NCBI GenBank assembly: GCA_016840795.1
Contig: JAEORS010000001.1
Coordinates: forward strand, 1-43,559
Origin: Candidatus Thorarchaeota archaeon
GTDB taxonomy: Archaea > Asgardarchaeota > Thorarchaeia > Thorarchaeales > Thorarchaeaceae
Length of the DNA stretch: 43,559 nt
Reading direction: 5' to 3'
The notes under the pieces were generated by a model. The model was not told the DNA's origin. It was given only the letters and a program-made list of their open reading frames with translations, and made no database searches. Shown piece after piece: positions 7,639 through 38,415 of the stretch. Position numbers and translations under genes: made by a program. Positions within the stretch are counted from its first letter, which is position 1; the number at the start of each line of letters is the position of its first letter.

Positions 7639-8325
7639 TTGGCCATGACTTCGAAAGGAAAACTTGGATTCCTAATCAGCGAACGGCATTTTCCACTTTG
7701 GGGCATCGGAGGTTCTGTCGTTGGACTTGTGTTTATCTTGGGAGCACAGGTTCCCTACTCCGGAAGATACGGAGAGCCATTCTCCATGCTGAACCACTTT
7801 GTGTCGGAACTCGGTGAGCTTGGAGTATCAGAGTTCGCACTCCTGTTCAACTCAGGGATGATAATTGCTGGGCTCATCTTCATACCATTCATGATAGGCC
7901 TGGGCCTCTACATGGACAACATCGTTTCCAAGATTGCTGGAACGGTTGGCGTCTTTTCCGCCTTGTCGATATTCCTCGTGGGGATATATCCGATGAACTA
8001 CCTTGCCGAGCATAGCATGGCTGCTATGTCATTCTTCTTCAGCGGCATGATTATGGTAGGGCTCTGGACTATCGCCATCTTGCTTCAAAAGCAGGCAAAG
8101 ATACACAAAGGCTTCTCCTTGGGAGGGGTTATCAATTTCATGATATTCTTCCTCTTCCTCTATGGTCCGTGGGACTCAGTGGAAGACCTCTCCACTCGTC
8201 CAGATATCTGGATGGTGCCAACCCTTGAGTGGGGCATCTACTTTGCCATAGTTGGATACCTTTTCGCGTTGTCTGTCTTTGTCTGGAACAAGGAAAAGCG
8301 AGTCAGCGGCACTCAGAACGTCTAG
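7639..8325 (+). CDS. Polytopic membrane protein (DUF998-like)
   Basis: 228 aa with about six hydrophobic segments. The start is either TTG at 7639 or ATG at 7645. Confidence 0.5.
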   Translation: MAMTSKGKLGFLISERHFPLWGIGGSVVGLVFILGAQVPYSGRYGEPFSMLNHFVSELGELGVSEFALLFNSGMIIAGLIFIPFMIGLGLYMDNIVSKIAGTVGVFSALSIFLVGIYPMNYLAEHSMAAMSFFFSGMIMVGLWTIAILLQKQAKIHKGFSLGGVINFMIFFLFLYGPWDSVEDLSTRPDIWMVPTLEWGIYFAIVGYLFALSVFVWNKEKRVSGTQNV

Positions 8326-8340
8326 GAGGACTAGGAAAGA

Positions 8341-8634
8341 CTAGGGCAACTCTGCGGCTAGCTTCGCAGCCTCTTCTGTGGGTATCGCCAACAACGTTTC
8401 AGTCCTGTTTCCACCGCCCGATCCAAACATGAAGAGCGTCTTCATAGCAGCCTCGATGCTTGGGGCCTCTACTATCGTGACCCAATCATATCGACCCATG
8501 GTGAAGTATGTATCAACGATTTTGACATCCATGGATTTCGCCAGCTTCTGCGTGTTCTCTAACGCGCTCTTCAGGTCCTTTATGGCCTTGATTCCTTCCT
8601 GCGTCAGATTCCCAAGAACTACAAATCTGGGCAT
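8341..8634 (-). CDS. GYD-domain protein
   Basis: MPRFVVLGNLTQEG...TMGRYDWVTIVEAPS...A matches the GYD family pattern. The start was trimmed to the internal ATG. Confidence 0.7.
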   Translation of the reverse strand: MPRFVVLGNLTQEGIKAIKDLKSALENTQKLAKSMDVKIVDTYFTMGRYDWVTIVEAPSIEAAMKTLFMFGSGGGNRTETLLAIPTEEAAKLAAELP

Positions 8635-8718: not shown

Positions 8719-11622
8719 TTACTCAAGGAACAATGAAACGCGGCCGGGCAATGCAAAGCGCGCCTTGTTGTCAGGGTCATAATCAGTCTTCGTGGAATCA
8801 TGGACGTAGATGGTCATGCCAACTTCGGATTCGATGTATTTCGCTGACTCTTGCAACGCAGCTAGCTCGTCCTTTGCAGTCTTTGAATGGTCCCACAAAC
8901 CGTTCTCTTTTGCTATTCTGTCAACGATGCCTTTCACTTGTTTTCCGTGTTTCCTGAACTCCTTGTCCGACATCAGATGCTTCATTATGTCACTCACAAT
9001 CAGCGACAGTTCAGCTTCCCGTATACTGTTCATTGCCACGAACATCCATTCCGGTGCAACATACAGATGTGCCTTGGAAGGTTTCTTGCCTTTCAGCAGT
9101 TTTGCAATCTCTCTGATGTCACGTACTGTAGACTCTATGACTTGATGCTCAACCTCGGCATACGAATCAATCAATTTCTTGTCAACCTTCGGCCACTCTG
9201 CCAAGGTAACATAGCCTTCACGCTTCATCTTCGACCAGATTTCTTCACATGCATGGGGTGCCAATGGAGCCATCAGTCGAACCCACAAATCACAGACATA
9301 TCCCATGGTTGCGTCGCGCTCTTCTTTGGGAACCTCCGCACGTTTCAGGTAGTGATTGACAACACGAATCATTTCAGACGTGACAGTGATGGCATATTCT
9401 CGGATTCTGAAATTCTCTAGAGAGTCAGTGCATTCTTGAGCAATCGAGTTTGCTTTGGAGAGTAGCCATCTCGTCATGGCTGTTGGACTGTCTTTCTTTG
9501 TGTATGCCTTTGGTATTCTAGTAGCATACTTCACAAGCAAATCATTGAATTGACGTAGGCGGTTCCCAGCTGGGGGGACATCGCGTTCACGCCAGTCCAT
9601 GATATTTCCTGGCTCAGCGCCAGAAACAACGTAGATTCTGTAGACATCTGCTCCGTATTTCTCAGGAATCTCAACCAACGGTATTACGTTCCCCTTACTC
9701 TTGGACATCTTCCTGCCTTCCATGATGAGATCTTGGTTCAGACTTATACACTGAATCCAGTGCTTCTTAGGGAAGATGGCCACATGATGGAAGATTGCAA
9801 AGCTCAAGTGATTCGAGATGTGGTTTGTAGAGGTGTGCCGCTGATCATTTGGGTACCAGTACAGAAACTCGTCCCTCATAGTCTTCAACAGAGCTTCAGA
9901 GATACGGGTTTCGTCGGCTACGTTCTCTGCTTTGCCCATGCCTAAACAGACGTAGTCAAAGAAATCGCCAGTCAACTGCTCTGGTTTCAGCCTATTGTCG
10001 GCGATATGGTGTGCAATAGTATAGAAGGCCATGTAGATTGTTGAGTCTGACAGAGATTCAATAATCCACTCCTTGTCGAAAGGTAGGAAAGTGCCGACTC
10101 CTCTCTTTCGAGCACATGGTCTCTGTGCCAGCCAGTCAAAAGTCGACTCGAACAGATTCCTGAATATGTCTGGGACTATCTTCATTTCGTTGAGTGCGAC
10201 CCAGGCATCATCCTTCCAACCAGGGCTCTCATAGTCCAGGAACCACTGTCCAGCGAATACTCCGACTTGAACATCAGTTCCACACTTGCAGACTACTGGC
10301 CTCAAATCTGGTTCATAGAAGACATCCACACGGTTAATTGACCTCATCCACTCAATCACGTCTTCCTTGACGTCTTTGATTGCACGACCGGAGAACTGCC
10401 CACAGTTATCCTTCATCACACCCTCATAGAACTCAGCCTTGTAAATCTCCTGAGTGGCATCTTCCAGCTTTTCGGCCTCGTCCTGTCGCTTGATGTTTCG
10501 ACTCTCGACAGCATCCTTTGCTGGGAACTCGCTGTAACCTTTCATCTCGATCATACTGATTATTCTAATAGAACGGACCTCATCGGCAGATATCCCAAAT
10601 TGGTCCAAGCCAGAGGGGTCGTCCCAAAGGTCACGCAGGGCGATATAGTCGAAAGGAGCATGCCCAGGAACAGAATAGACTACTCCAGAAGCATTATCAG
10701 TGTCTACGAATTCTGCAGGTAGGATTAGGACCTCACGATCGTCATGGATTGTCATGAATCTCTTCCCGATGATCTTCGAGCCTGGGAAGGTTTCTAGGAC
10801 CTCAATCTCCTTGGCCTGCAGTTTCAGTTTCTCAGCCGCTTGACGTGAGATGACCCATTTTTCATCTCCAACTTTGGCCCAAACGTATTCCGCAGTAGGA
10901 TGTATCCACATGTTGGTGACGCCGAAAATGGTTTCCGGTCGAAGCGTGGCTGCAACCAAGAAGCCGTCCTCAAAGGGCCACTTGATGGCTGTGAACTCCT
11001 TTATCTTGGCGTTCTCCCCCTTCAGCAGGTCATCCTCACCAACAGGGTTCTCGTCATTAGGACAGTATAACAGAGGATAGTTCCCTTGCTTGAGGTAGCC
11101 TTTCTCCATGAACTTGTGATACTGCCATGTGATGAACTGATTGTAGGTAGCGTCACCGGTTGTGAAATGTCTTCGCCAATCTATGCTGTATCCTAGTGCC
11201 TCGAAATCTTCGTGGATGACCTTGGCGAAGAACGCCGCAGTTGCCCAAGCATCAGTGAACTTTGCGAGCTGTGCCTCGACTTCATCTTCAGTATCGAAAT
11301 ACAAACGCAAGTCCCGCTTGTATTTTTCAATGGCAACTGGGTCACCAGCCTTGATTCTGTCAACCATGCCTTGCACTGGCGTACCAGTCATGTGCGATGC
11401 CATGGGGAATAGTACGTTGTAGCCACGCATGCGTTTGTACCTAGCGAGTACGTCGCCAACCGTATAGGTTCGACCATGACCGACGTGAAGAGACCCGTTA
11501 ACATATGGATATGGAACCGTCAAGAACCACTTTTTTCTCTTGGGGTCCGGATCGGCCTCAAACACTCGATCCTTCTTCCATCTTTTTTGCCACTTCTTCT
11601 CTATCTTGGCGAATTCACTCAT
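8719..11622 (-). CDS. leuS: Leucyl-tRNA synthetase, archaeal/eukaryal type
   Basis: Contains the HVGH (HIGH) motif, KMSKSKGN (KMSKS) and a large CP1 editing insert. The start is set at the ATG (MSEFAKIEKKWQKRW), downstream of the TATA-like element. Confidence 0.95.
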   Translation of the reverse strand: MSEFAKIEKKWQKRWKKDRVFEADPDPKRKKWFLTVPYPYVNGSLHVGHGRTYTVGDVLARYKRMRGYNVLFPMASHMTGTPVQGMVDRIKAGDPVAIEKYKRDLRLYFDTEDEVEAQLAKFTDAWATAAFFAKVIHEDFEALGYSIDWRRHFTTGDATYNQFITWQYHKFMEKGYLKQGNYPLLYCPNDENPVGEDDLLKGENAKIKEFTAIKWPFEDGFLVAATLRPETIFGVTNMWIHPTAEYVWAKVGDEKWVISRQAAEKLKLQAKEIEVLETFPGSKIIGKRFMTIHDDREVLILPAEFVDTDNASGVVYSVPGHAPFDYIALRDLWDDPSGLDQFGISADEVRSIRIISMIEMKGYSEFPAKDAVESRNIKRQDEAEKLEDATQEIYKAEFYEGVMKDNCGQFSGRAIKDVKEDVIEWMRSINRVDVFYEPDLRPVVCKCGTDVQVGVFAGQWFLDYESPGWKDDAWVALNEMKIVPDIFRNLFESTFDWLAQRPCARKRGVGTFLPFDKEWIIESLSDSTIYMAFYTIAHHIADNRLKPEQLTGDFFDYVCLGMGKAENVADETRISEALLKTMRDEFLYWYPNDQRHTSTNHISNHLSFAIFHHVAIFPKKHWIQCISLNQDLIMEGRKMSKSKGNVIPLVEIPEKYGADVYRIYVVSGAEPGNIMDWRERDVPPAGNRLRQFNDLLVKYATRIPKAYTKKDSPTAMTRWLLSKANSIAQECTDSLENFRIREYAITVTSEMIRVVNHYLKRAEVPKEERDATMGYVCDLWVRLMAPLAPHACEEIWSKMKREGYVTLAEWPKVDKKLIDSYAEVEHQVIESTVRDIREIAKLLKGKKPSKAHLYVAPEWMFVAMNSIREAELSLIVSDIMKHLMSDKEFRKHGKQVKGIVDRIAKENGLWDHSKTAKDELAALQESAKYIESEVGMTIYVHDSTKTDYDPDNKARFALPGRVSLFLE

Positions 11623-15249: not shown

Positions 15250-16194
15250 ATGGCGAAACCAGTCCGCTCGATGACCGGCCGTGACAGGGGCACAAACGTA
15301 TGTGCAATATGTGGTGGCAATGACTTCTATCAGGACCTTGCTAGAGGAGAGAGTGTATGCACAACGTGTGGTTGTGTAATCAATGAGAGACATATCGATT
15401 CGGGCCCAGAATGGAGAGCATTCACTTCTGAGGAAAGAAATGCTAGGGCACGAACTGGCTCCCCGATGACCCTCACCATGGCTGACAAAGGGCTCGCAAC
15501 AACAATAGGCTGGAGTGACAGAGATGCCAACGGCAGAGCAATCGCTGCAAGTTCACGCGCCGCAATCTACCGGATGCGTAAGTGGCAGATTAGAACTCTT
15601 GTTCACAGCTCTCAGCACAGAAACCTGAGTATTGCAATGAGTGAGATGGATAGGCTCACATCCCAGCTGGGAGTGCCAAATGAAACCAAGGAAACAGCAG
15701 CCCTTGTCTATAGGAAGGCCCTTGCAAAACGCCTTGTCAGAGGGCGCAGCATCGAAGGAATGGAGGCCGCGACCATCTATTTGTCTTGTAGAATCCACAA
15801 GATACCCAGGCAGCTTGATGAGATAGTCGCCGAGGCTAGAGTTAACAGGAAGGAACTAGGTCAGTGTGTGAGGCTCATTCTACGACACGTTGACGTCAAG
15901 GTTCCAATTCCTTCGGCAAACGACCTTATGCCGAGAATATCCTCAGATCTGGGACTCGACGGTCAGACTGTCCAGACAGCAATGAGTATCATCAACGATG
16001 CTAGGAGAGAGGGGATAACGGCTGGCAAAGACCCCGGTGGTCTTGCAGCAGCAGCACTCTACATTGCTGGCATAATCACAAGCGACAGGCGGACACAGAG
16101 AGAGATTGCTGAGGCCTCAAACGTGACTGAGGTCACTGTGAGGAACAGATACAAGGACCTGGCCAATAGCCTGGAGATTACAATCAAACCGTAG
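15250..16194 (+). CDS. tfb: Transcription initiation factor IIB (TFB), paralog 1
   Basis: N-terminal Zn ribbon (CAICGG...CTTCGCV), B-reader/linker (DSGPEWRAF) and two cyclin repeats (RGRSIEGMEAATIYLSCR, GKDPGGLAAAALYIAG). Confidence 0.95.
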   Translation: MAKPVRSMTGRDRGTNVCAICGGNDFYQDLARGESVCTTCGCVINERHIDSGPEWRAFTSEERNARARTGSPMTLTMADKGLATTIGWSDRDANGRAIAASSRAAIYRMRKWQIRTLVHSSQHRNLSIAMSEMDRLTSQLGVPNETKETAALVYRKALAKRLVRGRSIEGMEAATIYLSCRIHKIPRQLDEIVAEARVNRKELGQCVRLILRHVDVKVPIPSANDLMPRISSDLGLDGQTVQTAMSIINDARREGITAGKDPGGLAAAALYIAGIITSDRRTQREIAEASNVTEVTVRNRYKDLANSLEITIKP

Positions 16195-16275: not shown

Positions 16276-17040
16276 ATGGACCAATTCTTGCTAGCCTTAT
16301 GTGGAATACCCGCCTCGGGCAAGTCGGCACTGGCTTCTGTCATTGTTGCGCGGTTGACGAAAGAAACGGACGTAGTGATTGTCAGCACAGATGACTGGCG
16401 CGACGACAAGTACTACGCGGAATTCAGCCCTGATAACGAGAAGAGAGTTAGACGGGCAGCGCTCGAGAAGACAGAGAAAGCGATTGGAGAAGGAAAATCC
16501 GTCATCCACGATGACACAAACTACTATACAAGCATGCGTCACGAACTCTATGAAATAACGGTGCGAAGAGGATGTAGCTTTGCCACTGTTCACATTTCGA
16601 CACCAGTGGATGATGCGCTCTCTAGGAACACAGAGAGAGGCTCCAACATTCCTGAAGAAGTCATCCTGAGAATCAATGAGAAACTCGACGTTCCGGGCGA
16701 CAGATACGCTTGGGACAGTCCGATAGCGACTGTAGACCTTGGGGCTCACACACTTGATGATGCAGCAGACGAGATTGTTGAGAGGTTGAAGACGCTGGAG
16801 CCAAGTTCAGAGATCCAAGAAACTCAAGATAGTGGTGCCCGGAGTAGACTGGTGGACGTTATCACAAGGCAGGTCGTGGCACGCTTTCTGCAGGAGAATC
16901 CCACTTACAGAAACGACCCGAGAGTCACGAAAGCAAGACGAGAGGCATTGGCAAGATCCAAGGCCGAAGGGCTCACACCTCACGAAACAGAACAGTCACT
17001 GGTGGAAGACTTGGGAGCTCTAGTGGAGGACGAGCGATAG
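16276..17040 (+). CDS. pstK: O-phosphoseryl-tRNA(Sec) kinase (PSTK)
   Basis: 254 aa with a P-loop (LCGIPASGKS) and the PSTK-characteristic DDTNYYTSMRHELY motif. It sits 18 nt from the tRNA-Sec 3' end. Confidence 0.85.
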   Translation: MDQFLLALCGIPASGKSALASVIVARLTKETDVVIVSTDDWRDDKYYAEFSPDNEKRVRRAALEKTEKAIGEGKSVIHDDTNYYTSMRHELYEITVRRGCSFATVHISTPVDDALSRNTERGSNIPEEVILRINEKLDVPGDRYAWDSPIATVDLGAHTLDDAADEIVERLKTLEPSSEIQETQDSGARSRLVDVITRQVVARFLQENPTYRNDPRVTKARREALARSKAEGLTPHETEQSLVEDLGALVEDER

Positions 17041-17058: not shown

Positions 17059-17149
17059 TGGCGGCCTCCTAAGAGAATCGAACTCTAATCGCTTGCACGA
17101 TCATGGGTTTGAAGCCCACGGAGCCGGACCACCGACCCAGTAGGAGGCC
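17059..17149 (-). tRNA. tRNA-Sec (anticodon UCA) with genome-encoded CCA
   Basis: Folded by hand. Acceptor GGCCUCCUA/UAGGAGGCC (9 bp); CU linker; D stem GGGUCGG/CCGGCUC (7 bp, includes G-U pairs) with loop UGGU; anticodon stem CGUGGG/CCCAUG (6 bp) with loop CUUCAAA; variable arm AUCGU-GCAA-GCGAU; T stem AGAG/CUCU (4 bp) with loop UUCGAUU; discriminator G; CCA. Confidence 0.9.
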
Positions 17150-17196: not shown

Positions 17197-17847
17197 CTAG
17201 AGATATCTGGCTATGACCTCTTGTGTTTCCTTCTTCCACTCTATGCTCTTCTTCGCCAACTCGGTGGCGATATTGCCAGGAAGAGGCTCCTCACGGGGCA
17301 TGGATTCAATCCGACTTAGCCAACCCGAGGTCGTAAGCGGAAGTGACATCATGTCCTCCCCCTCGATGGCCTTGATCATCATCTCCCTTCCATGAGCCAG
17401 CTGGAAATAGACCGCACCCAAGGATGCCTTATTAAGTATCTCGAACACAAGACGGTCCCAACAGGTCTTTGCGACTAGTGCACGTCTGAGTTTTCCCTTG
17501 ATATCGTCAGGCAAGGCCTGATACTTCTTTAGAGAGTTTCCTGTAGACGTAGTTATCTCATCAATGTATTTCTCAAGTGCCGCGGGGTCTTCGCCCAAGG
17601 CGGTGACTTCAACCATCTTCTGGGCCTCCTCAACCGAGACGCTTACGTCAACCTTGTTGCCATCAATCTTGGTCGAAAATACAGCCTTCCCCTCAAAGAT
17701 CTGACTCTCAGCTTCGCTGTATTCGTTCAGAAGGACGCCGGGCCGGGAAGCAACGGCGTACCAAACGAGTCTAAACACAACTGCAGACTCAGGGATGTCG
17801 TAACCGAGGGTCTTTTTGATCTCAGTTCTGTCACCAATCTCTGCCAA
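17197..17847 (-). CDS. Uncharacterised 216-aa protein encoded between SepSecS and tRNA-Sec
   Basis: The ORF has a strong GGGAGGG SD 8 nt upstream of a TTG start. It begins 32 nt after the spcS stop and ends 47 nt before tRNA-Sec. I recognised no family motif. Confidence 0.7.
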   Translation of the reverse strand: MAEIGDRTEIKKTLGYDIPESAVVFRLVWYAVASRPGVLLNEYSEAESQIFEGKAVFSTKIDGNKVDVSVSVEEAQKMVEVTALGEDPAALEKYIDEITTSTGNSLKKYQALPDDIKGKLRRALVAKTCWDRLVFEILNKASLGAVYFQLAHGREMMIKAIEGEDMMSLPLTTSGWLSRIESMPREEPLPGNIATELAKKSIEWKKETQEVIARYL

Positions 17848-17879
17848 GGTTTTAGCCCTCCCTACTGGCCAACCGTGAA

Positions 17880-19190
17880 TTAGCTACTGACCTCCTTATA
17901 GAGTTTGGCAGTAGCTGTTTCCACGTCTTTTCTTGACGCTCCAATGGCCGCGTTCATTACTATGTAGTCGTGCGGATAGTTGTCGATGCAGGAACCAAAT
18001 GCTCCTCTTTCCACCACACGGGGTCCTGTGACCCGCCGGCAATACAATCTGGCTCCTACCTCCTTTGCGGATAGGCCATCTAGAGTCATCGCACAGGCGA
18101 TTGCATTATCTACGGAAAGAACACGTTGCTTGACTGATTCGGCTATTTCTTCCATCTTGTTCTCCAAGAACTCCCTGTTTTCTCTCTGCTCTTCTCTCAG
18201 CTTTTCATATCCCTCTTGACCAATGGCTAGCATGGCGGCGAGTGTCTGGACCACTGGCGCGGCCGTTGCCCTGCCGGCGTAGGTTTCTGCAATCCATTCC
18301 TTGGTTTCGGATTCAGGAGTCACGACAATCGATGCGCCAACTGGTGAAAGGAAGTTCTTGTCGCTGCTCTGTACAATTGCATCAACTCTACCAGCATCTA
18401 TTGCGGAACGGATGGAGGACATTATGGCTTCTGATTGAACTCCATACGCGTTATTGATTATCAGAGGAATTGCGCTGTCGCTGCAAAGTCTGGAGATCTC
18501 TTTCAAGGGATCAGACAACCGGGGCGGAAAGAAGGTTGTTGTCGCCAATACTGCATACGATTCATTCTTCGATATACATCGTTCTAGCTCAGAGATGTCT
18601 GCTTGGACAGCATCACCCTCTAGAATCGTAGGTACTTGTACATGTTCAAGCCCGGCTAGTGCTATTGCACGAATGGGAGAAGCATGGTCAAGTCTCGGAT
18701 ACAGCACTCCTCGGACGCCCATTTCTCTCCGCAGGGCGCCCAGGACTAGGGCAATGCTCATTCCAGTCGCTAAGGGCAGCACAACGCCGTTTCGGACATT
18801 GCTCAGCCCCAGCTTCCTGATGGCGTCAACTGCCACTTGGTCCGCCACCTGCTGCATCAGTGACGTCCCGGGGGCCTTGGGCTGAGGGGCAGCAACATGG
18901 CCACTGCGACCGATTCCATGATTGAAACCGAAAGCCATCCGTTCGACAAAAGGGGATGCCACCCGTCCTTCTCGTTCCCCGACTCGTGCCGATTCTGGAT
19001 CCTTATCTGTGTCCATTGAGGACAAGAGTCTGAACAGAGTCTCCAACTGCAAGTCTGAGAAAGGCATCTTGGGGAATCTTCTGCGGTTCAGCAGGTCCCT
19101 AAGAGGAGCCAACAGTGCCTCAATAGTCACCCGTCCTCTCTCTGCCATGTTCGTTGGAATGATATCAAGCAGTCGATCTTCTATATCCAA
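17880..19190 (-). CDS. spcS: O-phosphoseryl-tRNA(Sec) selenium transferase (SepSecS)
   Basis: IPTNMAERG...FRLLSSMDTDKDP N-terminus and a PLP-lysine region, SSDKNFLSPVGASIV. The preferred start is the TTG at 19190, preceded by AGGAGG; the ORF could extend to the TTG at 19208. Confidence 0.9.
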   Translation of the reverse strand: MDIEDRLLDIIPTNMAERGRVTIEALLAPLRDLLNRRRFPKMPFSDLQLETLFRLLSSMDTDKDPESARVGEREGRVASPFVERMAFGFNHGIGRSGHVAAPQPKAPGTSLMQQVADQVAVDAIRKLGLSNVRNGVVLPLATGMSIALVLGALRREMGVRGVLYPRLDHASPIRAIALAGLEHVQVPTILEGDAVQADISELERCISKNESYAVLATTTFFPPRLSDPLKEISRLCSDSAIPLIINNAYGVQSEAIMSSIRSAIDAGRVDAIVQSSDKNFLSPVGASIVVTPESETKEWIAETYAGRATAAPVVQTLAAMLAIGQEGYEKLREEQRENREFLENKMEEIAESVKQRVLSVDNAIACAMTLDGLSAKEVGARLYCRRVTGPRVVERGAFGSCIDNYPHDYIVMNAAIGASRKDVETATAKLYKEVSS

Positions 19191-20571
19191 AGCTGAGTTC
19201 CTCCTCAACGAGTTTTTCGTAAATCACTTTGTCTGACTCCTTCACTGGGGCCTGGAAGACGCCGATTAGCACACCTCGAGTACCAAAGGGCCGCATAAGG
19301 GTTCCCCTGATGCCACTTGTAGTCTGTACAGGGGAACCTACAAACAACTCAGCGCGATCCTTGCTTGAGGCAATTCCTTCGACTAGTACATCGTCAGTAC
19401 GCACTCTGCCTATTCTTCCCATGCGAACTCTGCGTCTGTTCAACACAATCTTCGCTGGAGTTTCAATGACCTCCCCCGACCCAACTATCCTCATATGAGT
19501 AGGCGGCAGGTCGGTCCTCATTAAGATCACCTTCTGGCCTTCCTCAACTGCGATTTGGTTCTGGAATAGCAGGGCTGCCATGAATCCCGTTTCCTTTGCC
19601 TCATCCATGATGACCCTCCTATCTTCAGTGAAGGGCACAATTTCGGCGGTCACGTTCGGCATCCCCACCATTGTGCTTACAACCATCCTGTCCGTTATTC
19701 TCCCCTTGTACAATCGGTTTCTTTCCAGTTGGACTAGGACTCCTTTCCGGCTGACGAGAGCCCCTTGTTCAGACAAATAGTCACCGCGACTTATCTCGCT
19801 GTATTTCATGTCAGGAATGTTGACACCCACTCGGTCTCCAGCCTTCGCCTCAGGTAGGTTTTCCCCGAATGTCTGGATCGTTCTTACTCTCGCTTCTGCA
19901 TCCTGTGGCATCAGCCTCACTGTGTCCCCAGCGCGCAGAATCCCTCGTTGGATTGTGCCTGTGACCACTGTACCATGGCCCTTCACTGGAAATGCATGGT
20001 CAATAGGCATAAGAAATGAGCCATCGGTCAATCTCTTCTTCGGCCTAATCTTCTGGTTGAGGACCTCCTTCAGCTGGTCAATACCCTCTCCATTCTTGGC
20101 TGAGACTGCGACATATGCTGTGTCTTTGAACGCCGCCTCTTGAAGGACGGTACGTACCTTTTCTTGGACTGCCTTTAGGGCCTTGGGTTCAACTAAATCA
20201 CTCTTGGTTATCGCCACCACAATCGTATCAATCCCCAAGGACCGCAGCACGACAATGTGCTCTCCCGTCTGAATCTTGGGACCCTCGTCTGCGGCCACAA
20301 CAAGAATCGCTGCATCGATTATGTTTGCTCCTGCAACGACACTCCTAATCAAGTCTGCATGTCCCGGGGCATCTACCAGTGTCACACGCATTTTCCCAAG
20401 AGTGAACATCGTGAAGCCAAGGTCGATGGTTATTCCTCTCTCCTTAGCTTGCGGATGCTTGTCAAGGCCTGCAGTGGAAACTTTCTCACTCAATGCGCGG
20501 GCCAGCTCGGTCTTGCCATGATCAATGTGACCCACAAGGCCGACATGAACTGGAACGAGTTGCGTCATCAT
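19165..20571 (-). CDS. selB: Selenocysteine-specific elongation factor (archaeal SelB/aEFSec)
   Basis: 468 aa with GTPase motifs GHIDHGKT, DAPGH and TKSD. There are EF-Tu-like domains II and III and a short domain IV, with no bacterial winged-helix extension. Its 3' end overlaps spcS. Confidence 0.85.
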   Translation of the reverse strand: MMTQLVPVHVGLVGHIDHGKTELARALSEKVSTAGLDKHPQAKERGITIDLGFTMFTLGKMRVTLVDAPGHADLIRSVVAGANIIDAAILVVAADEGPKIQTGEHIVVLRSLGIDTIVVAITKSDLVEPKALKAVQEKVRTVLQEAAFKDTAYVAVSAKNGEGIDQLKEVLNQKIRPKKRLTDGSFLMPIDHAFPVKGHGTVVTGTIQRGILRAGDTVRLMPQDAEARVRTIQTFGENLPEAKAGDRVGVNIPDMKYSEISRGDYLSEQGALVSRKGVLVQLERNRLYKGRITDRMVVSTMVGMPNVTAEIVPFTEDRRVIMDEAKETGFMAALLFQNQIAVEEGQKVILMRTDLPPTHMRIVGSGEVIETPAKIVLNRRRVRMGRIGRVRTDDVLVEGIASSKDRAELFVGSPVQTTSGIRGTLMRPFGTRGVLIGVFQAPVKESDKVIYEKLVEEELSFGYRRSTA

Positions 20572-20602
20572 CCAACAGTCTTGGTCTTGCTCAGAACACC
20601 AG

Positions 20603-20608
20603 CTTAAA
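20603..20608 (-). promoter_or_regulatory. Candidate TATA box (TTTAAG on the minus strand) for the selB operon
   Basis: It lies about 32 nt upstream of the selB ATG in a 107-nt divergent spacer. A TTTATT box at about 20657 serves the opposite gene. Confidence 0.3.
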
Positions 20609-20678
20609 CCCTTCGCTATCGAGCTTGTTACGCTCCAACACTACGATTAGCGGGCTGTTTATTGGGCAGATTGCTGAG

Positions 20679-21098
20679 ATGAATCTCATGGTTTCAAGGT
20701 CTCTAGAGAAGATGCTTCTAGTTGCAATTGGTCTCTCAACTGCCGTGCTGATAGGTGTTCCAGTTCTCATGTACGCAATGGACACACTTGGAACTGCGTC
20801 TCAATTAGAGAGAGCAAGTCTATTCGCTGACAGAGTACATAACGTCACTGGAAGCGTGAACGACGGGCTAGCAAACAACATCGCGATCGAGATCCACGTG
20901 CCCGACGGCATAGTCATTGCCTCTGTTGGGACAACTCTCACGATTATGTTTGAGATGGAAGGCTTGGAAACCAGAACATGGAGTGTGGCCTATGATCACT
21001 CGATAGTCCTTGTTGGACCATCGGATTCTGGACCCTACATAATGCATGTTCAACTCGATTCCGGCACTATCGAGATTGCCTTTTCCTCCGTCATCTGA
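20679..21098 (+). CDS. Hypothetical N-terminally membrane-anchored protein (possible archaeal pilin/FlaF-G-like beta-sandwich)
   Basis: 139 aa after trimming the part antisense to selB. It starts MNLMVSRSLEKMLLVAIGLSTAVLIGVPVL and continues with beta-rich sequence. Confidence 0.45.
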   Translation: MNLMVSRSLEKMLLVAIGLSTAVLIGVPVLMYAMDTLGTASQLERASLFADRVHNVTGSVNDGLANNIAIEIHVPDGIVIASVGTTLTIMFEMEGLETRTWSVAYDHSIVLVGPSDSGPYIMHVQLDSGTIEIAFSSVI

Positions 21099-21188: not shown

Positions 21189-22250
21189 ATGGCTAAGGAT
21201 TCTGAATCGTCTGAAGACATGGATGTTGAAGAGGACGAGTTGGACTTAGAAGAGGTTTCAGATGACGAGGACAGTGAAATCCACCATGAACCAGAGACCC
21301 CAAGAAGACTGAGTCTAGAGAATCCAATCGGCATCATCTTCAATATTCGGATGCTAAGACGAGTTGTCCAGCTGCTGTTCCTCCTAGGAATCAACGCATA
21401 CATTCTCGCTACGTGGTTTGGGGGTGAGCAAATTCTAGCATTCTGGGAGGGCTTTCGCGACATCTTGCCGAGCTTGCCCATCATCGCCCCCCTGGAAGCA
21501 CCAGGAGCTGTTCTTGCTGGCACCTTCGACACTCTTCAGCGAGAATTCTCCGGAGGCATATTCCCGTTCTTCACACTCGGAGCGATGATCATAATCCTCA
21601 CGATTCTCGGCAGATCAGCCTGCGGGTGGGTGTGTCCAATTGGGACAATCCAAGACTTCGCTACACTTCCAAAAAGAACCAAAGTGCGTCCGTCTCCTAA
21701 TACTGAGGATGAGCTTCGGCGCGTTAAGACGTACATCTTCGTAATCGTAATGGGGCTGGCCGTATGGGTTGGAATAAGCGGGCTCTTCGGAACTGCTGAT
21801 GATCTTGTGAACATACTTGGACCATTCGCCACAGCGGCATTTGATCCTTTCAATCCCGCCTTCATTATCTTCTACGAGGCTACCACACAGCTTTGGCCCT
21901 ACTCGTTGGAAACTATATGGTTCATCACACAGTGGGGATTCTTCATAGCACAGATTGCGTTCGTGATTTTGATTGTGGGTATCGGAATCTGGGTGCCCAG
22001 ATGGTTCTGTAGATGGTTGTGCCCTGCAGGATGGCTCTATGGTGCGTTCTCCAGAGAGGCTATCGTTGGCATAGGAAGGAATCCTGCAAGATGTACACCG
22101 GACACCTGCAACGTGTGTGAAGTTGTGTGTCCCATGAACATCAGAATTCGCCGCTACCCCTATAAGGCGTTGCGTTCGCCGGAGTGCATCCTCTGTCTAG
22201 AGTGCAAAAGCCATTGTCCAAATGGGGCAATCGTACTACGGTTTTCGTGA
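21189..22250 (+). CDS. NapH/MauN-like integral-membrane 4Fe-4S protein with an acidic N-terminal tail
   Basis: CGWVCPIGT and CRWLCPAGW TM-embedded motifs plus a C-terminal CNVCEVVCP / CILCLECKSHCP ferredoxin domain. The first 40 or so residues are D/E/S-rich. Confidence 0.7.
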   Translation: MAKDSESSEDMDVEEDELDLEEVSDDEDSEIHHEPETPRRLSLENPIGIIFNIRMLRRVVQLLFLLGINAYILATWFGGEQILAFWEGFRDILPSLPIIAPLEAPGAVLAGTFDTLQREFSGGIFPFFTLGAMIIILTILGRSACGWVCPIGTIQDFATLPKRTKVRPSPNTEDELRRVKTYIFVIVMGLAVWVGISGLFGTADDLVNILGPFATAAFDPFNPAFIIFYEATTQLWPYSLETIWFITQWGFFIAQIAFVILIVGIGIWVPRWFCRWLCPAGWLYGAFSREAIVGIGRNPARCTPDTCNVCEVVCPMNIRIRRYPYKALRSPECILCLECKSHCPNGAIVLRFS

Positions 22251-22604
22251 TTGATCCCTGGTCCGCTTCACGGTGACCCTCTCGAAACTATCCTGTACAC
22301 TGGCAAAGAGATCCATGAGTTTCAGACCAAACCCGGTTATTCTTGCGCCCCCACCACCCTCAGTGCCACCCTTGTAGGTTTCTAGGAGCTTGACTCCGGT
22401 TTTCTGTTCAATCTTCCTCACGACACCCCAGGCATATCGATATGACATTCCTAACGCCTTCGCGCCCTCTGTAATTGTGCCGTTCTCTTTGATGCTCCTC
22501 AGAATTGCGAAAGCACCAGGTCCAAATACGTAGTCGCCATCATGCTCTAACCACAACTTCCAGTTAGGCTTCAGCTTTGAGAATGCGTCATCTTCAGCTG
22601 TCAT
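22236..22604 (-). CDS. ModE N-terminal-domain-like winged-helix regulator (molybdate/tungstate-type HTH)
   Basis: ILRSIKENGTITEGAKALGMSYRYAWGVVRKIEQKTG...L...KGG..GGGA.IT..G matches the ModE-N/COG2005 pattern. An alternative start is the GTG at 22628. Confidence 0.65.
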   Translation of the reverse strand: MTAEDDAFSKLKPNWKLWLEHDGDYVFGPGAFAILRSIKENGTITEGAKALGMSYRYAWGVVRKIEQKTGVKLLETYKGGTEGGGGARITGFGLKLMDLFASVQDSFERVTVKRTRDQSRKP

Positions 22605-22663
22605 CGGTGAACACTTCCAGTGGCCCACTGGATAAGGGTGGATTACTACTCATATGACAGTTG

Positions 22664-22918
22664 CTAATGGCCCCAACGGAGTCGCTCTGGCTTCGTGTCT
22701 TTCTTGAATTCCTTCTTAACAAGTTTCCAATGGTCAGAGCAGAGATAGACTTTCATTGAACGAGCGTCCTTTACCTGCAGACCTGTATTCGCGATGCTCT
22801 TGGTTATGCGTACTGTCGGGAAAGACCGCTTGGAATCGTTTTGACACCCAACAATGCTGCAGGTCTTCTTTGCTGACGACAACTTCCTCACTTCATCGAT
22901 GAGCGTACACGTGTACAT
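22664..22918 (-). CDS. Small C2CH zinc-finger protein with a basic C-terminus
   Basis: 84 aa with C20-X4-C25-X34-C60-X2-H63, followed by WKLVKKEFKKDTKPERLRWGH. Confidence 0.55.
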   Translation of the reverse strand: MYTCTLIDEVRKLSSAKKTCSIVGCQNDSKRSFPTVRITKSIANTGLQVKDARSMKVYLCSDHWKLVKKEFKKDTKPERLRWGH

Positions 22919-22944: not shown

Positions 22945-23943
22945 CTAGACATCACCTTTCGGAGTCAATAGTGGGCCTTCTGAGTAGTCAAACATGACCC
23001 GTTCTTCTGCGGACAATCTAAGCCTAAGTGACATCGTATTGTCCACCTCACCTACTTGGACCGCTGTAAGCCCGCACTCGCGCGCCACCTTCTCTACCAA
23101 GGGCACTTTCTCTGGATTCACTGCTACAAGGAATCCCAATGATACGTACATGCGAACCCAATCTTCGAGTATTATAGAGTTGGGACGAGCTGAGTCTACT
23201 GCATCAAGGTCGAGAAATCCTCCCTTCCCTGAGTATTCCAGTAGCATTCCGGCTGTGCCCACGAGTCCTGCAACTGAAACATCCTTGGCGGCGGTCACAA
23301 GATGCTTTTGAGCTAGTTTGATCATCACAGAGAGCCGTTCCACGACCTCGTTCGCAGATCGCTCAGTGACCGAGTCCCAACCTAACTTGTAACTGCCTCC
23401 GCGACGTCCTCGACTGTCGAAGAGCAGAATCAACACATCGTTGTCGCAAGCCCCACCGGCCGTCAGCATATTCTCTTTCTTGACCGTCCCTGTTGCAGAT
23501 CCAACAACATAGGTAGACGTGGACTGGGGATTCGTGTGGCCTCTAACTATGGGGACTCGAAAAGTATGAGACCCATCAATCAAACCCTCTAGAATCTGCT
23601 CGCCGATAGCGGAGTCATAGTATGAGATTGCCACAGCGAAGGAAGTAGGAGTGCCCCCTGCTGCATAGATGTCCATAACGGTTGCCAATACTGCATTGAA
23701 GCCGGCGGCTCGCGGATGGTTGAGGCATAGTTCCTCAACAATTGCGTCAGTCGTGAGTAGAACAATCTCATCGCTTGTTGTCAGAATTGCGGCCGAATCT
23801 TCACCAAGTCCGTGTTCTTGATTGCCATTGTAAGACGTTGCACGAAGACGTCCGATAATAGAAGGAAGAACGTACTTGCGGGAGATTCCCTCGAACTCGT
23901 GTAGGAGGGCAACAATCTCCTCTAAACGTGTCAAACAGAACAA
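22945..23943 (-). CDS. AIR-synthase-related (PurM superfamily) protein, selenophosphate-synthetase-related type, without a Sec/Cys-Lys loop
   Basis: 332 aa. GLGEDSAAIL...LLTTDAIVEE...AVLATVMDIYAAGGTP...RGHTN is the PurM/ThiL/HypE/SelD-type N-domain. TTG start. Confidence 0.65.
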   Translation of the reverse strand: MFCLTRLEEIVALLHEFEGISRKYVLPSIIGRLRATSYNGNQEHGLGEDSAAILTTSDEIVLLTTDAIVEELCLNHPRAAGFNAVLATVMDIYAAGGTPTSFAVAISYYDSAIGEQILEGLIDGSHTFRVPIVRGHTNPQSTSTYVVGSATGTVKKENMLTAGGACDNDVLILLFDSRGRRGGSYKLGWDSVTERSANEVVERLSVMIKLAQKHLVTAAKDVSVAGLVGTAGMLLEYSGKGGFLDLDAVDSARPNSIILEDWVRMYVSLGFLVAVNPEKVPLVEKVARECGLTAVQVGEVDNTMSLRLRLSAEERVMFDYSEGPLLTPKGDV

Positions 23944-32259: not shown

Positions 32260-33228
32260 CTAGGCAAGATTCATTGTGTCTATGCCCAGTTTCCGCACAA
32301 TCTCTTTGTATCTGTTGCGTACAGTTACCTCAGTGACTCGAGCCACCTCAGCAATCTCACGCTGTGTTCTTCTCTCATCCAACATTATGGACGCCACGTA
32401 AATGGCTGCAGCTGCCAGGCCAAGAGGATCGCGTCCTATTGTAAGACCTATGTCTCTGCTTCTTTTCAGTATCTCAACGGTCCTGAGCTGAACAGGACTA
32501 GATAGAGAAAGTTGAGAAGCGAAGCGAGAGATGTAGTCGATTGGGTTGCTAAGTGGAATCTTGATGGCCAATGACCGCAAGAGCAACCGATAGCACTGGC
32601 CGAGCTTCTTCTTGTCTACCCGGGAAGCGTCAGCCACCTCATCAAGAGGTCTGGGCTTCATCCGGATTCTGCAAGCGGCATAAAGGGTAGCTGCGACCAT
32701 AGCTTCTATGGACCGACCGCGAACAAGCTTCTTGATTATGGACTTCCTATAGAGAAGCGCGGATAACTCTCTTATCGGCTTTGGAATCCCTAGCTGGGAA
32801 GCGAGTCTCTCAAGCTCGGACATTGCCTGGGCCAAGTTTCGATCCATGGAGCTGTGAACTCGAGACCGGATTTGCCATTTGCGTAGTCGATAGATCTCCG
32901 ACCTTCTTGTGGGTGTCAGTTTGCGGCCGGATGTGTCCCGGTCGCGCCAGTCGATGACGGTAGAGAGACCCTTGTCGTGAACAGTGTATCTCAGTGGGGC
33001 ACCAACTCGGCTTCGCGCATCAGCCTCTTCAGAACTAAAGGCCCTCCATTCTGCACCGGAATCAATTCGGTGGTCGGATAGGACTAGGCCACAGCCACCA
33101 CAGACACGCTCTCCTCGCGTCAGGTCCTCGACCACAGAGTTTGAACCACACTCCGGACACATCTGTATCTCAGAGTCGACCTTAGCGATACTACTCCTCT
33201 CTGGAGCATCACCGCGCATATGATCCAA
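32260..33228 (-). CDS. tfb: Transcription initiation factor IIB (TFB), paralog 2
   Basis: CPECGS...CGGCGLV Zn ribbon, DSGAEWRAF, and two cyclin repeats. I estimate roughly half of the residues are identical to TFB-1. TTG start at 33228 (GGAGG 7 nt upstream) or ATG at 33219. Confidence 0.95.
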   Translation of the reverse strand: MDHMRGDAPERSSIAKVDSEIQMCPECGSNSVVEDLTRGERVCGGCGLVLSDHRIDSGAEWRAFSSEEADARSRVGAPLRYTVHDKGLSTVIDWRDRDTSGRKLTPTRRSEIYRLRKWQIRSRVHSSMDRNLAQAMSELERLASQLGIPKPIRELSALLYRKSIIKKLVRGRSIEAMVAATLYAACRIRMKPRPLDEVADASRVDKKKLGQCYRLLLRSLAIKIPLSNPIDYISRFASQLSLSSPVQLRTVEILKRSRDIGLTIGRDPLGLAAAAIYVASIMLDERRTQREIAEVARVTEVTVRNRYKEIVRKLGIDTMNLA

Positions 33229-35895: not shown

Positions 35896-38415
35896 ATGAC
35901 CACAAGTGAACATGCAGATGGCGACAGCGTGGAAGTCGCTGAGCCTGAAGTCGTATCAGGAACTGATGAAGTTCGAATCGGGGTCTTCCCGTGCATGTGC
36001 GGGAAGAATATCGGTGCAGTTGTTGATATTGAAGCCATCGCCGAGTTTTCAAAGTCCCTTCCCGGTGTAGTCTTCGTCCAGACGAACAGATACACTTGTG
36101 CAGACCCCGGGCAGAAAGAGATCCAGGAGGCGATCAAGGAACACAATTTGAACAGAGTTGTCGTAGCATCTTGTTCACCAACAATGCACGAAGACACGTT
36201 TAGGAAGACTGTCAAGGCCGCCGGTCTGAATCCCTACCTCTGCGTCATGGCAAACATCAGGGAGCACGTATCTTGGGTTCACGCACATGAGCCGGAGTTG
36301 GCCACTGTGAAGGCAAAGGAACTGGTATCAATGTCTGTGGCGAAGGCAATGACTCTAGAGGCTCAGCCTGAATTGGATGTGCCCGTTACTCAGGCAGCAA
36401 TGGTGGTCGGGGCGGGCGTAGCCGGAATGCAGGCCTCTCTTGATTTGGCCGAGGCAGGATTCAAGGTCCATCTGATTGAACGCCAGCCAACAATCGGTGG
36501 AATCATGGCCATCCTCGACAAAGTATTCCCACAGAATGACTGCTCGATCTGCATCCTCGGCCCGAAAATGGTCGATGTCGCAAAGCATCCCAATATCAAT
36601 CTGATAACAATGGCTGAGGTTGATGAGATATCGGGCTATGTGGGCAATTTCAATGTCCGAGTTAAACAGAGAGCTCGCTATGTTGACATTGAGAAGTGTA
36701 CCGTATGTGGAGACTGCGTTGAAGTGTGTCCTGTGGATGTTCCAAGTCGCACAGATCAGAATCTCACATGGAAGAAGGCTATCAGTATTCCCTTCCCTCA
36801 GGCGGTCCCCTCTTCTTACTACATTGATACCGACGCGTGTTTGGGAATGGACCTCATTAGGTGCGGCAAGTGTATTGACAAATGCGAACAAGAAGCAATC
36901 GTTCCGTCAGACAGGGACAAGATAATCGAATTTAAGGTCGGGGTCATCATCCTTGCGACTGGATTCTCACCAGCAGATCCGAACAAGATTCCACGTCTCG
37001 GTTGGGGCAGATATCCAAACGTTATAACCACGCTTGAGTTTGAGAGGCTCATAAACGCCGCTGGGCCTACTGAGGGTCACCTTGTAAAACCTTCTGACCT
37101 CACCAAGCCGGGATCAATTGCCATTGCTCAGTGTGTAGGATCTAGGAACTTGAGCACTAGAACAGGTTGCTCCAACTATTGCTGTGCAGAGTCAGTGAAG
37201 TGTGCACTCCTGATAAAGGAACATTACCCGGACACTGAGGTCACCATCTACTATCAAGATCTTCGAATGCACGGGAAGTACTTTGAGGACCAATATCTCA
37301 AAGCGCGAGAAGAGGGCATCAAGTTTGTGAGGGGCCGAGTCGGAGAGATACAGCAGTATCCGGACACAAAGAACCTCCGGGTGAGTGTAGAAGATACGAC
37401 TCACAATCAGCTTGTAATGAAAGACTACGATATGGTTATCCTCTCGATGGGCGCAGAAGGCACAGCAGGCGACTTTCCCTTGCCCATCTCATGTACCTCG
37501 GACTCTTTCTACATTGAATCGCATCCGAAGCTGCGACCTGTAGACACAAGCTCGGCGGGCGTGTTCATCTGTGGTGGCGCAGAGTCACCAAAGGACATCC
37601 GCGATTCCGTCATCCAAGCTAGCGCAGCAGCAGGTCGAGCTGCAATCATTCTTCAGAAAGGGCGGTACCCAATCGAGGCACTGAGCGCCAGGATAATGCA
37701 GGAGAAGTGCAACCGCTGCGGCACCTGTGTGAATAGGTGCCCATATGGGGCAATAGTTGTAGATGGGACTGGCAAGCACACGGTGATGGGGGCGCTTTGT
37801 CAGGCCTGCGGGTCCTGTGCTGGAGACTGTCCTCAGGGTGCAATCTACATGCCGAATTTCACAGATCAACAGATAGAGGCCCAGATAGAGATGGCATTGA
37901 AGGAAGATGCCGCCGGGAAGATCGTGGCCTTCGCCTGTGCATTCTGTTCTTACAGAGGCTCAGACCTAGCAGGCGTGTCCAGAATGCAGTATCCAACTAA
38001 CGCGAGAGTCATCCGAGCAATGTGTTCTGGCCGCTTCCATGTCAAGTTCGCGCAGAAAGCGTTTGAACTGGGTGCGGGTGCCGTGCTCTACTCTGGTTGC
38101 CACTTGCCGGCTGACTGCCATTTCCAGAGCGGCAATCATTGGATGGCAAAACGTGAACCACGTATTCGACGTTGGATGAAGAGGAATAACATAGACGATG
38201 ATAGGTTCAGAGTAGAGTGGGTATCAGCTGGCGAGGGCAAGAAATGGCAAGGGATCATGACCCAGATGTCAGAGGTCGCTGAGAAGAATAGAGAGGCCTC
38301 ATTAGCTGCTGCGAAACCAAAGAAGAAGCCAGTATCGAAGAAGTCGACCAAAGCCAAGGCGGCAACGAAGAAAAAGCCGAAGAAGCCGACCGAGAAGAAA
38401 CAGTCGAGGAAATAG
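35896..38415 (+). CDS. hdrA: Heterodisulfide reductase subunit A fused to an MvhD domain, with a Lys-rich C-terminal tail
   Basis: N-terminal Cys domain (FPCMCGKNIG), FAD motif (VVGAGVAGMQASLDLAEAG) and four CxxCxxCxxxCP ferredoxin motifs. The MvhD region is IVAFACAFCSYRGSDLAG...RAMCSGR...GC....CHF. The last 36 aa are K/P/A-rich. Confidence 0.9.
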   Translation: MTTSEHADGDSVEVAEPEVVSGTDEVRIGVFPCMCGKNIGAVVDIEAIAEFSKSLPGVVFVQTNRYTCADPGQKEIQEAIKEHNLNRVVVASCSPTMHEDTFRKTVKAAGLNPYLCVMANIREHVSWVHAHEPELATVKAKELVSMSVAKAMTLEAQPELDVPVTQAAMVVGAGVAGMQASLDLAEAGFKVHLIERQPTIGGIMAILDKVFPQNDCSICILGPKMVDVAKHPNINLITMAEVDEISGYVGNFNVRVKQRARYVDIEKCTVCGDCVEVCPVDVPSRTDQNLTWKKAISIPFPQAVPSSYYIDTDACLGMDLIRCGKCIDKCEQEAIVPSDRDKIIEFKVGVIILATGFSPADPNKIPRLGWGRYPNVITTLEFERLINAAGPTEGHLVKPSDLTKPGSIAIAQCVGSRNLSTRTGCSNYCCAESVKCALLIKEHYPDTEVTIYYQDLRMHGKYFEDQYLKAREEGIKFVRGRVGEIQQYPDTKNLRVSVEDTTHNQLVMKDYDMVILSMGAEGTAGDFPLPISCTSDSFYIESHPKLRPVDTSSAGVFICGGAESPKDIRDSVIQASAAAGRAAIILQKGRYPIEALSARIMQEKCNRCGTCVNRCPYGAIVVDGTGKHTVMGALCQACGSCAGDCPQGAIYMPNFTDQQIEAQIEMALKEDAAGKIVAFACAFCSYRGSDLAGVSRMQYPTNARVIRAMCSGRFHVKFAQKAFELGAGAVLYSGCHLPADCHFQSGNHWMAKREPRIRRWMKRNNIDDDRFRVEWVSAGEGKKWQGIMTQMSEVAEKNREASLAAAKPKKKPVSKKSTKAKAATKKKPKKPTEKKQSRK

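Follow-up and report, generated by a model that had tools for sequence, protein, structure and literature searches.

Introduction

SBP2, of the L7Ae family, and SECp43/TRNAU1AP are eukaryotic accessory factors of the archaeal/eukaryotic-type selenocysteine (Sec) pathway. Both are missing from archaea, where their roles are unfilled, and archaeal recognition of the selenocysteine insertion sequence (SECIS) has been an open question for more than 20 years. On the archaeal side, the transsulfursome protein SepCysE assists an enzyme that converts tRNA-bound phosphoserine and belongs to the same pyridoxal phosphate (PLP) family as SepSecS, and SepCysE co-occurs with archaeal Sec use (Mukai et al. 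2022). Additionally, Asgard archaea carry eukaryote-like SECIS elements, and an Asgard-exclusive hypothetical protein, often encoded near secS, efSec and pstk and exemplified by MBD3157761.1, has been described (Huang, Xiao & Zhang 2024, ISME J 18:wrae111). This study addresses a 216-aa open reading frame (ORF) in a 43,559-nt stretch of DNA from a Thorarchaeota assembly (GCA_016840795.1, contig JAEORS010000001.1), referred to here as the window; the ORF lies between spcS, the gene for SepSecS, and the gene for tRNA-Sec (Table 1).

Because archaea are without SBP2, archaeal SelB does not bind SECIS, and the SECIS elements of Asgard archaea are eukaryote-like, the most obvious candidate for a missing component of the pathway is an Asgard-specific protein with a link to spcS, as already stated in print and in NCBIfam. 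If it is a Sec adaptor, the protein bears on the origin of the eukaryotic Sec machinery; otherwise, it joins the other Asgard-specific proteins that are still uncharacterised. The initial annotation of the window regarded it as a novel, dedicated Sec factor, and its premise that no archaeal SBP2 equivalent has been described agrees with the literature. The comparative analysis presented here suggests a different emphasis: the gene is deeply linked to spcS across Asgard archaea, and it repeatedly outlives the Sec pathway, so that the encoded protein is probably not a dedicated Sec factor.

Results and discussion

A real gene in an already curated family

The 216-aa ORF is a genuine gene and evolves under purifying selection. 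The median pairwise ratio of nonsynonymous to synonymous substitution rates (dN/dS) among Thorarchaeia copies is approximately 0.08, homologs begin at the same alignment column as its TTG start (some with ATG), and a purine-rich Shine-Dalgarno-like motif is found at the matching position in 57 of 58 Thorarchaeia loci. Homologs fall into 327 clusters at 90% identity, with an additional 147 reached via a profile of distant members. The closest relatives come from Thorarchaeia metagenome-assembled genomes (MAGs). One database protein matches at 100% identity, and a copy with 91% identity is encoded on the closed Thorarchaeota chromosome CP070658.

The absence of a family signature in the initial annotation is borne out by Pfam, where neither this protein nor 23 diverse family members find a match at E of 1 or less, but not by NCBIfam. 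There, the equivalog model NF045535 ("Sel_Asgard", "putative selenocysteine system protein") is matched with 231.3 bits against a cutoff of 132 (E=9.2e-69) over nearly its full length, with residues 19-212 aligned to model positions 3-194 of 195, and some GenBank MAG proteins among the homologs already bear the model's name. The family was thus already known, being curated in NCBIfam and having its neighbourhood inference published by Huang et al. 2024, and the description of the protein as novel does not stand. The family is probably the same as the hypothetical protein of those authors; its clusters contain the accession series of MBD3157761.1 but not that accession itself. The literature searched contained no experimental test of the function of the NF045535 family.

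The family is small: an exhaustive HMMER scan of 1.84 billion representative proteins yielded only 29 representatives of it. All members with a named source are Asgard archaea, namely Thorarchaeia, Lokiarchaeia/Promethearchaeota, Jordarchaeia/Freyarchaeota and Odinarchaeia, together with a few MAGs labelled Hod- or Hermodarchaeota.

Conserved position directly downstream of spcS

Gene order was compared across the loci of 69 GTDB species of Thorarchaeia and found to be near-constant: selB, spcS, the 216-aa gene and tRNA-Sec follow one another on one strand, flanked by the divergent ORF201 on the selB side and by the oppositely oriented genes for PSTK and transcription factor B (TFB) on the tRNA side. 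The 216-aa gene lies directly 3' of spcS in all 58 Thorarchaeia loci that retain spcS (median gap 30 nt, range 14-124), and tRNA-Sec follows it in 53 of the 69 (median gap 44 nt). Outside this class the surroundings are rearranged, with an order of PSTK ... selB-spcS-homolog in Jordarchaeia and of tRNA-Sec-spcS-homolog in Lokiarchaeia, where selB lies 3 kb off on the other strand; the same spcS adjacency was seen in three further lineages. Since the adjacency is conserved across classes whose gene order is otherwise scrambled, it suggests a functional tie to the SepSecS/tRNA-Sec step, and the position directly 3' of spcS is taken as ancestral for the gene.

A metagenome sample anchored on spcS gave a comparable picture. 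Downstream sequence was long enough for a verdict in 67 of its 80 loci; 37 of these carried a family member, in 36 cases directly 3' of spcS. The embedding in the Sec locus pointed out in the initial annotation is therefore deeply conserved. Approximately 24 of the 30 evaluable loci without a member match Bathyarchaeia SepSecS best, and the others match no labelled reference closely (three Helarchaeota-like, one Freyarchaeum-like, and two weakly similar to Frey- or Jordarchaeia). A Helarchaeota-labelled contig likewise had no member within 6 kb of spcS.

The Bathyarchaeia spcS loci (L117-L157, e.g., L120 and L157) show two arrangements, both without a family member: either PSTK, selB and spcS in that order on the same strand, or PSTK and selB, side by side or fused, on the strand opposite to spcS, and a convergent tRNA-Sec approximately 30 nt past spcS.

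Retention of the gene after loss of the Sec pathway

Seven Thorarchaeia species loci (L002, L004, L015, L030, L043, L048 and L057) carry an intact 216-aa gene between ORF201 and TFB and no functional selB, spcS, tRNA-Sec or PSTK; the partial locus L069 looks alike. No tRNA-Sec reached the Rfam threshold in any of the seven. Remnants of the lost genes are found in place in three of them. In L048, selB codons 2-102 abut spcS codons 321-441 (7899-8545), and a 59-codon PSTK stub persists (10207-10386); L043 holds a frameshifted selB N-terminus with the final 28 spcS codons (9560-9947); and L015 holds an spcS C-terminal stub (9761-9948) along with a tRNA-Sec-like remnant at approximately 10700-10790 that was called by neither ARAGORN nor Rfam. 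These three loci capture the Sec locus at natural intermediate stages of decay. That the Sec genes had moved elsewhere instead of being lost was judged unlikely from the in-situ stubs in three loci and the absence of a threshold tRNA-Sec in seven of seven, within a scan that covered the loci themselves. Nearest-neighbour relationships indicate at least five independent Sec-loss events in Thorarchaeia.

Selection on the 216-aa gene persisted through these losses. Sec-less pairs gave dN/dS values of 0.097 (L002/L004, dS 0.275) and 0.063 (L030/L043), compared with a median of 0.080 for 49 Sec-positive pairs. At the 49 alignment columns that are at least 95% conserved in 61 Sec-positive copies, the seven Sec-less copies deviate 0, 0, 0, 1, 1, 5 and 0 times, the five belonging to L057; leave-one-out deviations among Sec-positive copies average 1.08 with a maximum of 7, so that all Sec-less copies lie inside that range. 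The flanking non-Sec genes (TFB, ORF201 and those for the NapH-like, AIR-synthase-like (AIRS-like) and zinc-finger proteins) are retained in the Sec-less loci in the same way.

Retention extends beyond Thorarchaeia. Divergent, motif-complete members occur in Sec-free contexts in Odinarchaeia, including the 1.42-Mb LCB_4 contig CP091871, in agreement with the reported lack of Sec use in this class (Huang et al. 2024). Additionally, a lineage represented by P0128 (26% identical) is syntenic with Thorarchaeia and carries the gene flanked by the same neighbours, with no Sec gene there.

Combined, the repeated survival of the gene without a SepSecS step implies that its core function is not Sec-dependent, and the protein is probably not a dedicated selenocysteine factor, contrary to the initial annotation. 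Under the refuting condition that the annotation had set, the idea of a dedicated role is partly refuted: linkage is conserved, yet homologs survive in the absence of Sec machinery. The in-situ Sec deletions with the gene kept, the retention in Odinarchaeia and the putative TATA-like promoter of the gene's own, described below, are new in this analysis.

A putative promoter inside the spcS reading frame

A TATA-like box is located 59 nt upstream of the start codon of the 216-aa gene, among the final spcS codons (K-L-Y-K-E). The sequence AAACTCTATAAGGA, or a close TATA-like variant, was detected in 63 of the 69 Thorarchaeia loci, nearly always between -55 and -61. Third-codon-position conservation is 0.81 in the box compared with 0.49 in the 11 codons upstream, and the box is identical at 14 of 14 positions in five of the seven loci that have no spcS reading frame. 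Furthermore, the Sec-locus deletions consistently end just upstream of it. From these sequence patterns, the box appears to be an archaeal promoter of the 216-aa gene's own, which would produce a leader of approximately 30 nt holding the ribosome-binding site. The initial annotation considered the gene almost certainly co-transcribed with selB and spcS; read-through from a selB-spcS transcript is possible, but with a putative promoter so conserved it would not be the sole route of expression, and that account is incomplete. The coding sequence of spcS itself appears to be constrained by the promoter of the downstream gene, the box being unchanged after spcS deletion.

Predicted structure and conserved residues

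The full-length AlphaFold2 model of the protein is confident (predicted local distance difference test, pLDDT, 88; predicted template modelling score, pTM, 0.86), and the C-domain modelled alone reaches a pLDDT of 95. The predicted N-domain (residues 8-111) has a beta-alpha-beta4-alpha order like that of TATA-binding protein (TBP), with strands at 8-15, 39-46, 52-61, 64-73 and 78-85 and helices at 21-33 and 88-111, and the predicted C-domain (residues 114-215) is a bundle of four to five helices. The beta-rich N-terminal half and helical C-terminal half that the initial annotation had read from the letters are thus reproduced, with strands confined to residues 8-85 and helices filling 88-215. 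One database protein, P0123 (268 aa), joins an unrelated 134-residue N-terminus to the family's C-terminal helical domain, which may reflect a fusion, a truncated gene or an error in gene calling.

The Foldseek check proposed with the initial annotation gave no PDB match at E of 1e-3 or better for the full model or for the C-domain alone. The best N-domain matches were TBP-like or related PsbP/DcrB/EagT6 folds (E=1.4e-3 to 7e-2; query-normalised TM-score, TMq, of 0.34 or less), and the best C-domain match was the C-terminal four-helix bundle of Vps28 (2J9W chain A), which at E=0.053 is not significant. A sequence-profile search of the PDB returned only a spurious coiled-coil match to the neck repeats of a C-type lectin family protein. 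Neither Pfam, PDB sequences nor Foldseek assigned the protein to an enzyme-like or RNA-binding family.

Across members with identity as low as 17%, F25, D131, R154, E155 and K205 are invariant and Y147 and W204 nearly so. The family as a whole conserves no cysteine, histidine or metal-site residue: C129 is confined to Thorarchaeia, the P0134 and P0136 members contain no cysteine at all, and H152, N-terminal to the invariant R154-E155, is limited to Thorarchaeia and close relatives. The isoelectric point (pI) of the whole protein varies from 4.8 to 9.1 across members, and that of the Thorarchaeia N-domain is 4.6. Nothing in these features points to catalysis, selenium relay or a canonical RNA-binding module. 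A HEPN/RnlA-like toxin was considered and rejected, the R-x(4-6)-H motif being missing and the Foldseek TMq to RnlA being 0.25-0.27.

Possible roles of the protein

To accommodate both the spcS linkage and the Sec-less copies, we tentatively propose a non-enzymatic adaptor or accessory protein that works with the SepSecS/tRNA(Sec) step when it is available and has a second, Sec-independent role, each of its elements (function, SepSecS as partner, dual role) being inferred. The protein would be small, with a TBP-like alpha/beta N-domain and a helical-bundle C-domain, and would act as a protein-binding adaptor, with a loose parallel in the SepCysE of the Sep-tRNA(Cys) pathway or the eukaryotic SECp43. 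Its helical bundle would provide the binding site, a conserved polar cluster formed by D131, R154-E155 and K205 together with Y147 and W204. The second partner or role is suggested by the persistence of selection on the gene after selenocysteine loss.

Several observations weigh against this proposal. Mirror-tree partial correlations with SepSecS, SelB and PSTK (r of 0.45-0.54) single out no partner among the three and are lower than those among the Sec proteins themselves (0.58-0.70). The lack of relaxation at conserved sites after Sec loss is what would be expected if the protein had never had a Sec-specific interface, and the invariant polar residues could be structural, as in a buried salt bridge, instead of a binding site. 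Additionally, three Helarchaeota-like spcS loci and one from Helarchaeota contain no family member in the fetched flanks of approximately 1.5-6 kb.

The main alternative, considered only slightly less likely, is that the protein has no direct role in selenocysteine and is an Asgard-specific housekeeping or regulatory protein whose position next to spcS is historical or co-regulatory. The gene's behaviour after at least five in-situ Sec deletions, with unchanged dN/dS and conserved residues just as for the flanking non-Sec genes, agrees with this explanation, as do its presence in the Sec-less Odinarchaeia (among them LCB_4) and in the Sec-less lineage syntenic with Thorarchaeia, and its apparent own promoter. 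A position directly 3' of spcS in at least four Asgard classes with scrambled order is, however, rare without a functional link.

The housekeeping explanation also draws on a neighbouring gene for a small C2CH zinc-finger-like protein (70-84 aa), as the 216-aa protein could be the acidic partner of this basic finger. Every Odinarchaeia locus, like the P0142 lineage, has the zinc-finger gene immediately behind the family gene, and a Lokiarchaeia subgroup has it directly downstream but on the opposite strand. Another Lokiarchaeia group has it between selB and spcS. In Thorarchaeia it is approximately 4.8 kb from the 216-aa gene, and across Thorarchaeia and the other Lokiarchaeia loci it lies within approximately 3-6 kb; against a general partnership, it was not found in the fetched flanks of the Jordarchaeia, P0128, P0143 and several Lokiarchaeia loci. 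The finger weakly resembles eukaryotic SAP30/THAP fingers (PDB 2n1u, E=0.018; Pfam THAP, best E=0.002), and the protein may be a partner of the 216-aa protein or an Asgard relative of the eukaryotic finger.

Two versions of a role in Sec decoding appear unlikely. In the first, the family would be an Asgard coupler of eukaryote-like SECIS elements, or of SepSecS/tRNA-Sec, to SelB, a pre-eukaryotic analogue of SBP2 and SECp43 that survives in Sec-less lineages via a general ribonucleoprotein or translation function, possibly with the C2CH finger; we regard this as a long shot. The second, favoured in the initial annotation and also raised as a possibility by Huang et al. 2024, is a dedicated SECIS-recruiting factor that binds the eukaryote-like SECIS, brings SelB, or both. 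The vacancy left by SBP2 in every archaeon, together with a SelB that does not bind SECIS, would suit such a factor, and the Asgard-only range of named members parallels the reported Asgard-only range of eukaryote-like SECIS elements, as does the absence of the gene from Bathyarchaeia spcS loci. It is nevertheless improbable: there is no L7Ae or other RNA-binding domain, the N-domain is acidic and the whole-protein pI variable, so that direct binding of SECIS or tRNA-Sec is unsupported, and the tightest linkage is to spcS and not to selB. The gene is also not found near spcS in Helarchaeota-like loci, and it is fully retained and constrained in Sec-less lineages that have no SECIS to bind.

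A selenium-delivery or selenide/selenophosphate chaperone for SepSecS, the carrier role put forward in the initial annotation, fits a gene adjoining that of the selenium transferase but is highly improbable for a family with no shared cysteine, histidine or metal-site residue and two cysteine-free members, whose gene is kept where there is no Sec pathway. No other selenium-utilisation pathway was found in Asgard archaea by Huang et al. 2024.

The Sec locus and its surroundings in the window

The features of the window are collected in Table 1. The minus strand carries, in order, selB, spcS, the 216-aa ORF and tRNA-Sec, with the PSTK-like and TFB genes convergent on the plus strand. The arrangement given in the initial annotation was found in full, on that minus strand: the TAA of spcS (17880-17882) leaves a 32-nt gap before the ORF, a GGGAGGG Shine-Dalgarno-like motif precedes its start, and tRNA-Sec begins 47-49 nt past its stop on the same strand. 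The 3' end of selB overlaps spcS as annotated from a TTG start by 44 nt (19165-19208), and the real spcS start may be further downstream. The PSTK-like kinase has good KTI12 and AAA_33 matches and a TIGR03574 score under the cutoff, and its identity as PSTK rests on its context and its co-loss with selB, spcS and tRNA-Sec.

Table 1. Positions of the Sec-locus genes and neighbouring features; locations refer to the window unless a locus is named.
Feature	Location	Strand	Remarks
216-aa ORF	17197..17847	-	TTG start, 216 aa; NCBIfam NF045535 (Sel_Asgard) member
Shine-Dalgarno-like GGGAGGG	17856..17862	-	8 nt upstream of the TTG of the 216-aa ORF
TATA-like box AAACTCTATAAGGA (14-mer), putative promoter	17893..17906	-	-59 from the 216-aa gene start codon; within the last spcS codons
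spcS (SepSecS, O-phosphoseryl-tRNA(Sec) selenium transferase)	17880..19208	-	PF05889 E=5e-116; TIGR03531 446 bits
selB (archaeal Sec-specific elongation factor)	19165..20571	-	TIGR00475 273 bits; PF21440 aSelB_III
tRNA-Sec, anticodon TCA	17063-17147 (ARAGORN); 17063-17149 (Rfam RF01852)	-	RF01852 59.3 bits, gathering score 47
PSTK-like kinase, KTI12 fold	16276..17040	+	PF08433 E=2e-32; TIGR03574 136 bits, under cutoff 290.5
TFB gene	15250-16194	+	Conserved PSTK neighbour
Second TFB (TFIIB) paralog	32260-33228	-	
ORF201	20493-21098	+	N-terminal hydrophobic segment
C2CH zinc-finger-like protein	22664..22918	-	C-x4-C...C-x2-H, basic K-rich tail; candidate partner
Further zinc-finger copies	L072 10695-10907; L084 10670-10882; L087 10699-10908; L085 1921-2151; L081 10746-11054, 11098-11397		
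Block with AIR-synthase-like, NapH-like and ModE-type helix-turn-helix (HTH) genes	22945-23943, 22236-22628, 21189-22250	-, -, +	
HdrA-MvhD(FlpD) fusion, 839 aa	35896-38415	+	Followed by HdrC- and HdrB-like genes (block 35896-39815)

ORF201 is divergent from selB, has homologs in all Thorarchaeia loci, and has no Pfam or NCBIfam match; deletion of selB and spcS brings it directly next to the 216-aa gene, in divergent orientation. The two TFB paralogs lie within 17 kb of each other. A selenoprotein gene with an in-frame TGA was sought in the window as a marker of Sec status, and no convincing case was found. The selenoproteins of Asgard archaea are chiefly HdrA and FrhD/MvhD; the HdrA-MvhD(FlpD) fusion encoded here has no internal TGA and looks like a Cys form.

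Near the Thorarchaeia Sec locus, an AIRS-like protein is encoded beside a NapH-like polyferredoxin membrane protein and a ModE-type HTH protein. Its identification as SelD was rejected, since it scores 39 bits for selD against a cutoff of 125, is nearest to methanogenesis-marker-2/sll0787 and is kept in Sec-less loci; given this retention in Sec-less Thorarchaeia, the block as a whole is probably not Sec-specific. On the Helarchaeota contig L168 (7395-9439), an AIRS-like gene lies directly 3' of spcS.

Implications and comparison with known systems

Because the gene repeatedly outlives the Sec pathway, neither annotation nor interpretation should treat family members as dedicated Sec factors, and the genomes with natural Sec loss lower the odds that this protein answers the archaeal Sec-decoding question. 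The same genomes serve as natural "Sec-knockouts" and, together with a confident fold model, seven invariant or near-invariant residues, a putative internal promoter and a candidate zinc-finger partner, provide handles for experiments.

Compared with NF045535, the protein is a full member that differs in nothing, its Asgard origin and Sec-gene neighbours being alike. Its predicted N-domain shares the beta-alpha-beta4-alpha order of TBP-like fold proteins (SCOP d.129: the AlkA N-domain, phosphoglucomutase domain 4, the RnlA N-domains and Bet v1/SRPBCC), but there is no sequence similarity to them, and a fold so functionally heterogeneous predicts no function. The C-domain superposes on the C-terminal bundle of the ESCRT-I subunit Vps28 (2J9W) with a TM-score of 0.58 by query and 0.73 by target and a root-mean-square deviation of 2.5 Å over 94 columns, and its E-value is more than tenfold better than that of the next unrelated entry. 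Yet identity is 13%, helical bundles match easily, and Pfam VPS28 (PF03997) matched none of the 23 family members up to an E-value of 1, so that the resemblance is a lead only.

Unlike SBP2 and SECp43, the 216-aa protein has no L7Ae or RRM domain (no L7Ae-type structure was among its Foldseek matches), is acidic in Thorarchaeia, and is present in Sec-less organisms. With regard to SepCysE, no similarity was found in the PDB profile search (E of 10 or less) or among the 50 best matches of each of two Foldseek searches. The likeness is therefore one of functional analogy only: SepCysE, as part of the SepRS-SepCysE-SepCysS transsulfursome (PDB 5X6B/5X6C), shares with the protein proposed here the traits of being small, non-enzymatic and approximately 200 aa long.

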